Below, one piece after another: positions 52,962 through 53,646 of a stretch of 64,000 nucleotides of DNA; the first letter of the stretch is position 1, and each line of letters begins with the position of its first letter. A model generated the notes under the pieces. It worked only from the letters and a program-made list of their open reading frames with translations, was not told where the DNA came from and did not search any database. This DNA comes from Pseudomonas phage phi9_PA9. Position numbers and translations under genes: made by a program. The stretch lies in the sequence record PQ093904.1. One strand, given 5' to 3'.

Positions 52962-53020
52962 TAAACAACCCCTCTCCTGAAGGAGAGGGACTTATCTGAA
53001 TTCTTTTTTTGTTTAAGTGA

Positions 53021-53074
53021 GAGCCGCCCGCTAAAGCGGCTCCCAAGTGGAGTTAAGTCTCCCGCTAAAGAGAC
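53021..53074. repeat. twin hairpins with identical 8-nt loop CCGCTAAA (GAGCCGC..GCGGCTC and GTCTC..GAGAC)
   Basis: Read directly; shared 9-mer CCGCTAAAG at 53028-36 and 53062-70. Confidence 0.5.
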
Positions 53075-53236
53075 ACTCCAGTATACATGGGGTAGCGACT
53101 CCTCATGTAGATATCCTAATTAATCTCTTTAGCTAGTAATCAATACCAGTTATCACTCGTTGATAATTGATTTGTTTATTAACTAATTTGACTTAATCAG
53201 AATAATCAATACATATTGTTAATAACCTAGTATATT

Positions 53237-53267
53237 ATTACCAGTATCATTGAGTAATACTGGTAAT
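53237..53267. repeat. perfect 11-bp inverted repeat ATTACCAGTAT / ATACTGGTAAT with 9-nt spacer in AT-rich non-coding DNA
   Basis: Read directly. Confidence 0.55.
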
Positions 53268-53316
53268 CAAATATTACTCATGAATATTACCTAATGTGGA
53301 ACTGAGGAATCGGATC

Positions 53317-53337
53317 GCCCCGTAGGGGCTTTTATTT
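53317..53337 (+). terminator. orphan + strand intrinsic terminator (no + gene upstream)
   Basis: GCCCC-GTA-GGGGC followed by TTTTATTT. Confidence 0.5.
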
Positions 53338-53577
53338 CATAATAAACTATACCGAAGGTATATCCTTATTCTAATAATAAACAATATTAGCATTATTCTA
53401 ATAGCGTTAGCTAATACATACTGTCTCCCTAAAAGGAGACACAGTATAGATTATATTTTTTTTTAATTAAAAATAATAAGTCTAGAGATAGACTTTCTTT
53501 ATGCCTTTAATACCTTCTAATTTGCTCTATAATCGATTTTATTCATTATCCACTAGCATATTAGCCATACGACATAA

Positions 53578-53600
53578 AAGCCCTCCTATGAGGGCTTAAA
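53578..53600 (-). terminator. terminator of the leftward operon ending at 53647
   Basis: On the - strand: GCCCTCATAGGAGGGC followed by TTTTATG. Confidence 0.55.
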
Positions 53601-53646
53601 TGCTTTATTGATTATTAGACGAATGGGTTAATCAGAATTAAATACA

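Follow-up and report, generated by a model that had tools for sequence, protein, structure and literature searches.

The stretch of DNA analysed here (the window) comprises 64,000 nucleotides of Pseudomonas phage phi9_PA9 (PQ093904.1), and this study concerns the 685-bp non-coding spacer at positions 52,962–53,646 of it. The window belongs to the genus Phikzvirus, and its region 52400–54200 matched 49 records of phiKZ-group Pseudomonas phages with 96–98% identity. To the left of the spacer a plus-strand open reading frame (ORF) of 101 aa (52656–52961) ends at 52961, and to the right gp117.4 (53647–54015, minus strand), the last gene of the helicase operon, ends at 53647; the gene of the DnaB-like helicase (54070–55617, minus strand) belongs to the same operon. 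Window positions were converted to positions in phiKZ (NC_004629) by adding 61,710, and the conversion was verified by alignment of the spacer and by published promoter and terminator sequences. Between the two convergent genes we found the homologue of an already known minus-strand RNA, a perfect palindrome and, in the centre, a conserved candidate RNA element on the plus strand. With moderate confidence we consider the spacer to be a regulatory non-coding hub, in which two units stand back to back around the palindrome with the terminators of the convergent operons at each side.

With a cut-off of 60 aa the gap was the largest internal ORF-free stretch in the window, and in a completely sequenced Phikzvirus (279.5 kb) no gap was larger than its counterpart, which measures 624 bp against 530 bp for the runner-up. 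The original prediction, which was made from the letters of the window, had claimed that no ORF longer than 15 codons lies here. This is wrong in detail, as plus-strand ORFs of 29 aa (53047–53136) and 32 aa (53501–53599) exist and a third, of 49 aa, reaches into the spacer from the left. None of the three was conserved as coding sequence; the small ORFs called by some annotation pipelines over the spacer or the central element were rejected as coding, being not conserved between genera. A scan for transfer RNA and transfer-messenger RNA genes found none.

The left half of the spacer holds the homologue of the phiKZ non-coding RNA (ncRNA) '5'UTR_p40' (5'UTR_gp40, where UTR stands for untranslated region), the unit TU089, at 53015–53212 on the minus strand, with a length of 197 nt and no gene inside. 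In the nanopore map of phiKZ (Putzeys et al. 2024, PMC10914365) the transcription start site (TSS) P060 was placed at 114922 on the minus strand, was assigned to the middle class and was also found by differential RNA sequencing (dRNA-seq), and the terminator T053 was placed at 114725 on the same strand, so that TU089 is a geneless unit of 197 nt. In window coordinates the start falls on 53212 and the end on ~53015. The main text of that paper equates the TU089 RNA with the ncRNA 5'UTR_gp40 of the Grad-seq study (Gerovac 2021 mBio, PMC8545117), in which the phiKZ RNA was ~180 nt long on a Northern blot, was recovered in the RNA-polymerase and 30S fractions of the gradient, apart from translated messenger RNAs (mRNAs), and contained no convincing small ORF. 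Over the segment of 198 nt the window differed from phiKZ at 4 positions, and 7 variable sites were counted over 7 genomes. Judged by this identity of ~98%, window 53015–53212 on the minus strand is the orthologue of the phiKZ TU089 RNA; the discrete 197-nt leftward RNA was demonstrated for phiKZ, and for the phage of the window we infer it from the same identity. Outside Phikzvirus the RNA was not recovered at the loci compared: the whole segment was missing in Pawinskivirus, and the motif that caps its hairpins was absent at the PhiPA3 locus.

Two hairpins with the same loop, described in the original prediction, were confirmed in the sequence as GAGCCGC-CCGCTAAA-GCGGCTC at 53021–53042 and GTCTC-CCGCTAAA-GAGAC at 53057–53074. 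The shared 10-mer CCCGCTAAAG occurred only at these two sites in the window, and likewise in the whole 279.5-kb Phikzvirus genome. The hairpins had been assigned to the plus strand; because the mapped ends P060 and T053 of the published RNA fall on 53212 and ~53015, they instead form the 3' end of that minus-strand transcript, whose first nucleotide is at 53212. The call of a candidate small RNA (sRNA) locus was thus right in kind, as an ncRNA had been published from this exact place in phiKZ, and wrong in the strand given to the twin hairpins. In the minus-strand RNA both are extended by G-U pairs: hairpin A (53048–53080), which includes the one at 53057–53074, has 13 bp with a UUA bulge, and hairpin B (53018–53045), which includes the one at 53021–53042, has 12 bp, and each carries the cap CUU[UAGC]GGG. 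The region of the twin hairpins folded to -34.8 kcal/mol on the minus strand compared with -28.8 kcal/mol on the plus strand, and the whole ncRNA had a predicted fold of -67.9 kcal/mol (z = -6.35). Hairpin B has no U tract behind it, the 3' end was mapped to a point a few nt further downstream, and T053 carries no predicted terminator type ('-') in the published table (PMC10914365).

In the mechanism that we propose, the non-virion RNA polymerase of the phage would start at the middle promoter (53212, minus strand) and make the 197-nt ncRNA, the 3' end of which would be set by the tandem hairpins with their identical CUU[UAGC]GGG caps. The twin hairpins probably act as a leaky module that forms the 3' end, or as one that stabilises or protects it, and the identical caps may be read by a protein, possibly a dimer, which makes them a putative binding site. 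A switch within the known RNA was also considered. The 10-nt complementarity between GCUAAAGAGA and UCUCUUUAGC was not significant (p ~0.09), and for this reason no switch is claimed.

The same transcript has been given another role, as the 5' leader of the PHIKZ117.2/117.1 mRNA with the twin hairpins as a conditional attenuator, and this is the published working interpretation. Both papers (PMC8545117, PMC10914365) call the RNA the first 180–196 nt of the p40 5' UTR, both detected longer read-through transcripts of 715 to ~880 nt, and the read-through unit TU088 (715 nt) was taken to encode PHIKZ117.2 and 117.1, which the RefSeq record of phiKZ places on the minus strand (window 52610–52961). 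The 31-aa ORF 117.2 was intact in all 7 genomes examined. The 69-aa minus-strand ORF 117.1, on the other hand, was interrupted by in-frame stops in two of these genomes, Bobae (codon 3) and 9Ps-7B (codon 16), whereas the overlapping 101-aa ORF on the plus strand was intact in 7 of 7 genomes and in 43 of 43 tblastn records. Most recent annotations call the plus-strand ORF, and the sedimentation of the short RNA apart from translated mRNAs (PMC8545117) also speaks against a leader. The phase of substitutions cannot decide the strand, since the third codon positions of both frames coincide. We regard the leader interpretation as unlikely and, from the pattern of intact and broken frames, the plus-strand ORF as the better gene candidate, the minus-strand annotation of the reference being probably on the wrong strand. 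If the plus-strand ORF is a real gene, transcripts that pass the twin hairpins would run antisense over 52656–52961, and this antisense RNA would be gated by the hairpins.

The promoter of the known RNA, P060 (middle class), occupies 53213–53262 on the minus strand. Its published 50-bp upstream sequence matches the window and is conserved apart from a single C/T difference, at 53226, and its TACT, the complement of 53230–53233, lies ~20 nt before the start. The 11-bp perfect palindrome of the original prediction is present at 53237–53267, with the arms ATTACCAGTAT (53237–53247) and ATACTGGTAAT (53257–53267) on both sides of a 9-nt spacer. Perfect arms of at least 11 nt were found at ~6 loci in the window against 0.57 expected from block shuffles, and some of these loci are terminator-type hairpins, for example at 52560. 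The arm sequences of the palindrome at 53237–53267 are unique in the window and in the complete 279.5-kb genome and were invariant in 7 genomes. In PA7 (JX233784) the arms are unchanged and the palindrome spacer CATTGAGTA (53248–53256) is present as its exact reverse complement TACTCAATG, as expected of a flip or a template switch within an inverted repeat.

On the other strand, a middle-type promoter was predicted at 53263–53295 (plus), consisting of an A-rich stretch, TACT at 53275–53278 and 17 nt up to a G at 53296. When a weight matrix was derived from the published sequences of 15 middle promoters of phiKZ, this site (TACT 53275) ranked 8th among 127,934 positions in the window, where ranks 1 and 4 were held by training promoters. 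The equivalent plus-strand sites ranked 1st in the 201phi2-1 and Viktualia loci, and a promoter-like site was present at the same spacing in all lineages that have the central element. From the centre of the palindrome (53252) the distance is 40 bp to the start of P060 and 44 bp to the predicted start at 53296. The palindrome thus probably lies, almost symmetrically, between two divergent promoters, one of them predicted, as a shared operator would. The gene of gp114, an XRE/helix-turn-helix protein (51088–51372, plus strand), is located 2 kb upstream of the spacer, and its product is a candidate binder of the palindrome.

In a sensitive nucleotide search the only part of the spacer that was conserved outside the genus was a segment of 58 nt at 53325–53382. 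It was 89.7% identical to eight Pawinskivirus records, compared with 64–66% for the helicase and capsid DNA and 26% for the gp117.4 protein in the same comparison, and in Pawinskivirus the matching sequence is likewise found beyond the end of the helicase operon, in the gap between convergent genes that corresponds to the spacer. The central element to which the segment belongs was found at the same syntenic position in PS119XW/PA1C, PhiPA3, 201phi2-1 and Viktualia. By these comparisons it is kept in at least five jumbo-phage lineages, always at the 3' end of the replicative-helicase operon. With a covariance model one copy per genome was detected, scoring 73.7 bits where the next match reached 19.6, and over 7 genomes the central block had 4 variable sites in 165 nt. 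Conservation extends to sequence outside the hairpins, namely AAUAAUAAAC, UCCUUAUUCU and UAGCGUnAGCU, and which sub-blocks are shared depends on the pair of genera compared.

No further relatives of the element were obtained by other routes. Exact-pattern scans for the conserved core in viral, metagenome and genome collections returned only PhiPA3 itself, and a search of viral contigs for the locus, anchored on the helicase, found no element. An Rfam scan, which had been proposed for the region beforehand, was run on the window and the PhiPA3 spacers at gathering and at permissive thresholds; in the spacers it gave only chance-level matches far below threshold, and thus no family for the spacer. 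In our literature search no paper was found that describes the central element. It is therefore apparently an undescribed candidate structured RNA, and the left RNA is already known.

The surroundings of the element differ between genera. On the left of the spacer, Pawinskivirus and PhiPA3 have plus-strand genes homologous to gp19–gp24 of phiKZ, which in phiKZ are found ~100 kb away next to the terminase block. In this rearrangement the element stays with the helicase side. The DnaB-like helicase gene of PhiPA3 is annotated in two pieces with ~1.8 kb between them that hold a putative endonuclease gene, which suggests an intron or an intein-type insertion.

On the plus strand the element has the order leader, P2 with a U-rich tail, an A/U-rich block, P4 and a segment that pairs back to the leader. 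Its conserved core of 80 nt (53296–53375) was predicted to form a four-way junction. In this fold P1 joins the leader (53297–53308) to the pyrimidine segment (53363–53373). P2 (53317–53329) is the hairpin GCCCC-GTA-GGGGC, followed by TTTTATTT with a U tract at 53330–53337; P3 (53331–53346) is a further predicted helix of the junction; and P4 (53348–53362) is a hairpin placed before the return strand of P1. The 3' extension (53376–53465) contains the A-rich AAUAAUAAACAAUA, a second pyrimidine motif CAUUAUUCU (53390–53402) and the hairpin UAGC-GUUA-GCUA, and its terminal hairpin (53418–53447) is followed by UUAU and U9 (53456–53464). Two plus-strand terminator hairpins had been listed for this part of the spacer, and both are present, the first at 53317–53337 and the second as the stem 53418–53447 with T9 at 53456–53464. 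A likeness within the spacer was also seen, in that the terminal hairpin of the element (53423–53442, GTCTCCCTAAAAGGAGACAC) is 80% identical to the twin hairpin at 53057–53076 (GTCTCCCGCTAAAGAGACAC), perhaps as the trace of an old duplication within the spacer.

When the core sequences of the window, PS119XW/HPP-Temi, PhiPA3 and 201phi2-1 were folded to minimum energy with no constraints, each gave the same four-way junction, in agreement with RNAalifold. The helices are kept in different sequences. P1 is built of UGAGGA:UCCUUA and UGGAA:UUCUA in the window, is longer and shifted in PhiPA3, and is AAAGCA:UGCUUU in 201phi2-1 with pair probabilities of 0.65–0.80. P2 reads GCCCC-GUA-GGGGC in the window, CCUCC-GGA-GGAGG in Pawinskivirus and PhiPA3, and GCCC-GUA-GGGC in 201phi2-1 and Viktualia. 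Three versions of P4 were found (AUACC/GGUAU, GUUAC/GUAAC and AUUGC/GCAAU), with three pairs changed on both sides between Viktualia and 201phi2-1, and compensatory changes were also seen in the terminal hairpins, both among Pawinskivirus sequences and when 201phi2-1 was compared with Viktualia. A canonical terminator of the phiKZ type closes the element in PhiPA3, 201phi2-1 and Viktualia, and the terminal hairpin of PS119XW has no U tail. The plus-strand fold was more stable than the minus-strand fold in two of three genera; this, the G-U pairs of P1 that are possible on the plus strand only, and the T-rich tails indicate the plus strand.

If this strand is transcribed, the second, predicted middle-type promoter would start at ~53296, and the rightward RNA would stop either at the first hairpin with its U tract (~41 nt) or at the second terminator (~170 nt). 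In the long form the purine-rich leader (GAGGA) would pair with UCCUUAUUCU beyond two internal hairpins and so close the 80-nt four-way junction. The original prediction had read the terminators, which have no plus-strand gene upstream, as signs of short plus-strand ncRNAs. The middle-promoter-like site 21 nt upstream of the predicted start at 53296, the conservation across genera and the shared fold agree with this, but the nanopore map contains no plus-strand start to go with it.

Several observations weigh against a transcribed RNA. In the phiKZ nanopore map neither a TSS nor a transcription termination site was reported on the plus strand between 114,239 and 117,303, and the available text of the dRNA-seq paper (Wicke 2020) mentions no plus-strand start at the spacer and a single sRNA, unconfirmed and of 75 nt. 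Since no plus-strand TSS has been published, transcription of this strand is a prediction. A 41-nt product that ends at P2 would be easy to miss, which is no evidence in itself. With efficient termination at the first hairpin few transcripts would reach the conserved half downstream of it. Three relatives, D6, RVTF4 and Psa21, lack the element and have a gap of only 48–55 bp. The promoter matrix scored poorly at the PS119XW and PhiPA3 sites, as it did at the validated P060. In a sample of about five lineages, column-wise covariation in the model-fitted alignment gave 2 pairs changed on both sides, a score that was reached by 76 of 500 shuffles, and covariation is on this account not claimed as proof. 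The single-sequence z of the core was modest (-0.5 to -4.1), the Bobae variant G53306T breaks a pair of P1, and the Viktualia fold is closed by a different helix. Taking together the missing published start, the weak covariation, the modest z, the variant that breaks P1, the Viktualia helix and the failures of the matrix, we put the chance that the central element is a transcribed functional RNA at even or slightly below.

Our best guess for such a product is a regulatory RNA that acts in trans or binds a protein and is synthesised midway through infection. We advance it as a tentative and still doubtful proposal that 53296–~53465 on the plus strand represents an undescribed family of structured ncRNAs of nucleus-forming Pseudomonas jumbo phages, single-copy, driven by a middle promoter and placed at the end of the helicase operon. 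In the boldest version of this proposal the RNA may be a primer or origin RNA of phage DNA replication, or else a decoy whose repeated UCCUUA copies the 3' end of 16S ribosomal RNA. In the P. aeruginosa phages and in Viktualia the pyrimidine motif contains UCCUUA, the 3'-terminal hexamer of 16S ribosomal RNA, and the leader is similar to a ribosome-binding site, so that the element may mimic the pairing between mRNA and ribosome. The complement of the pyrimidine motif (AGAATAAGGA) was not enriched in the window, where 4 matches were found and 6.9 were expected.

The conserved hairpins could also be explained with no second RNA, as a stack of back-up terminators or insulators between the convergent operons, whose identity between genera stems from recombination among co-infecting jumbo phages. 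Hairpin 1 with TTTTATTT and the terminal hairpins do match the stem-loop-TTAT pattern of phiKZ, the absence of a plus-strand TSS from the phiKZ nanopore map and the weak formal covariation fit this view as well, and the neighbourhood is mosaic, as seen in the PHIKZ117.3 insertion/deletion (indel) and in the left-hand genes that differ by genus. Against a terminator stack speaks the conservation of non-hairpin sequence and of a promoter-like site at fixed spacing. The sub-blocks that are kept differ by genus pair, more like selective constraint than like one transferred piece, and the loops of other terminators in the spacer vary freely, compared with 4 variable sites in the 165 nt of the element. 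We judge this explanation to be improbable, somewhat more so than the mRNA leader discussed for the left transcript.

In phage T4 (oriF and oriG) and at the primary origin of T7 a promoter is followed by an AT-rich unwinding element, and the transcript serves as R-loop primer. By analogy, the central element might be an origin of this type, with a promoter transcript as primer and an AT-rich unwinding stretch with repeated motifs beside the helicase gene. It always lies next to the DnaB-like helicase operon and in the largest non-coding gap of the genome, and its promoter-like site is followed by the purine-rich leader. It further has a G-rich run GGAGGAGGGGGG ahead of the T tract in Pawinskivirus and PhiPA3, an invariant, nearly pure A+T block of ~20 bp (TTTTATTTnnTAATAAAC), and the motif TCCTTATTCT repeated 2–3 times, with a spacing of 22 bp in PhiPA3. 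This spacing is 27–28 bp in phiKZ and Pawinskivirus, however, and the repeats are absent in 201phi2-1, so that regular phasing of repeated binding motifs was not found across these phages. The leader and the segment after P4 remain able to pair although their sequences are entirely different between phages, which would not be needed of a DNA site, and the element is absent from relatives with the same helicase. An inflection of GC skew had been proposed as a check for an origin, and neither GC nor AT skew singled out the site, in the window or in the whole genome. The cumulative GC skew of the whole genome rises throughout and follows the coding strand (r = 0.76); near the spacer it shows only a local inflection, which coincides with the switch of coding strand. 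After detrending, a local peak at 110.5 kb, ~1 kb from the spacer, was one of six, and the global extremes were at 184.5 and 260.5 kb. We consider an origin at this place to be quite improbable, a little more so than the terminator stack. A packaging initiation (pac) site, also raised in the original prediction, is hardly credible, as beyond an unusual, structured and AT-rich spacer nothing speaks for it: the gene of the terminase large subunit is at 12.6–14.7 kb in phiKZ, ~100 kb from the spacer at ~115 kb, public records of the genus start at many positions relative to the region with no consistent end, and no sequence resembling a repeated terminase-binding array was seen.

The two ends of the spacer are closed by terminator-type hairpins that were not listed in the original prediction. 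The left one, CCCTCTCC-TGAA-GGAGAGGG at 52967–52992, can be read on both strands. It closes the plus-strand ORF 52656–52961, where its tail is ACTTATCTGAATTC followed by T7, and in the minus reading, with the tail TTGTTTAT, it faces read-through on that strand. Its loop varies by genome (TGAA, TAAA, TTCA, TTTA) and its stem is near-invariant, with one G>T in 9Ps-7B. The right one is the terminator of the helicase operon on the minus strand (53570–53597, with the hairpin at 53578–53597), AAGCCCTC-ATAG-GAGGGCTT followed by TTATGTCG, with a fold of -18.7 kcal/mol (z = -4.9); equivalent hairpins are present in PS119XW and PhiPA3.

Between this terminator and gp117.4 lies an indel junction (53606–53646), at which the window lacks PHIKZ117.3, a 237-nt gene of phiKZ and most of its relatives. 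The gene is also absent from SL2, OMKO1, fMGyn-Pae01 and ANB1, and NK1 has a shorter ORF at that place. A direct repeat had been reported with copies at 53194 and 53626. The 11-nt repeat TTAATCAGAAT does exist, but its true coordinates are 53193–53203 and 53628–53638, and it is at chance level, as an exact 11-mer repeat was found in 11% of shuffled spacers (p ~0.11). The right copy belongs to the indel junction and occurs only in the few genomes without PHIKZ117.3; being not conserved, the repeat was rejected as a feature. Elsewhere in the window, the sole Rfam family above threshold was the group I catalytic intron at 4161–4387 on the plus strand (81.1 bits, threshold 50); for predicted introns of phiKZ no splicing evidence was reported in the nanopore study (Putzeys et al., PMC10914365). 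The palindrome scan also returned a long perfect inverted repeat at 47267–47310, with arms of at least 15 nt and nested hits.

The phages of the phiKZ type are model nucleus-forming viruses and candidates for therapy, and their largest non-coding region had previously been without a coherent description. In this study every structure in the spacer was assigned to a unit: the twin hairpins were placed in the known RNA, and the palindrome probably between two divergent promoters. If PHIKZ117.1 and 117.2 are annotated on the wrong strand, which is probable, a real gene would be covered in antisense by the read-through of the known RNA. Beside the helicase genes, the second RNA-like element, the more widely conserved of the two, is a testable prediction, with predicted bounds of 115,006–115,180 in phiKZ and 126,430–126,585 in 201phi2-1 (NC_010821), phages for which transcriptome data exist. 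If the element is transcribed, it would be among very few ncRNAs conserved across genera of jumbo phages, and if it acts as DNA, the family at present offers no better candidate for a site linked to replication. Overall we view the region as a partly known locus with one new candidate family of phage small RNAs.

Compared with the published phiKZ TU089, the left RNA of the window is the same in sequence, promoter, 3' hairpins and position, and no structural difference was found. What we add to the published description is the identity of the two genome-unique caps, the interruption of 117.1 in some genomes and the confinement of the RNA to Phikzvirus. The twin hairpins resemble the boxB site of lambda, which is bound by N, and the coat operators of MS2 and PP7 in that different lower stems carry an identical apical sequence, a pattern often seen where a protein recognises the site, and CUU[UAGC]GGG may be such a site. 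Its loop has no sequence relation to those of boxB, MS2 and PP7, and an Rfam match to MS2 elsewhere in the spacer reached 13 bits against a threshold of 40. In intrinsic terminators of the phiKZ type (Putzeys et al.) UUAU comes after a stem-loop. The hairpins at 52967–52992, 53317–53337 and 53578–53597 fit this description, as do the terminal hairpins in PhiPA3, 201phi2-1 and Viktualia, whereas the twin hairpins at T053 differ from it by having no U or UUAU tail.

For the central element, the T4 oriF/oriG and T7 origins offer a likeness in the middle-type promoter (here predicted), the short transcript, the AT-rich block and the replication genes nearby. They differ from it in that its AT block is only ~20 bp, that conserved helices of RNA type would not be expected at such an origin and that the skew is unsupportive, so that an origin role would be by analogy. 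The closest precedent that we found is sRNA005 of 201phi2-1 with its phiKZ counterpart, sRNA gp182, a leader sRNA of a tail gene, which is conserved across Phikzvirus, Serwervirus and PhiPA3 (PMC11512511); for 201phi2-1 three intergenic sRNAs are reported in the same study. The central element differs by its place at the end of the helicase operon instead of a tail gene, by having no gene downstream on the same strand and by its predicted four-way junction. Both are short and structured, with a phage promoter and an early terminator, all of which are predictions for the central element, and both are conserved in position and sequence.

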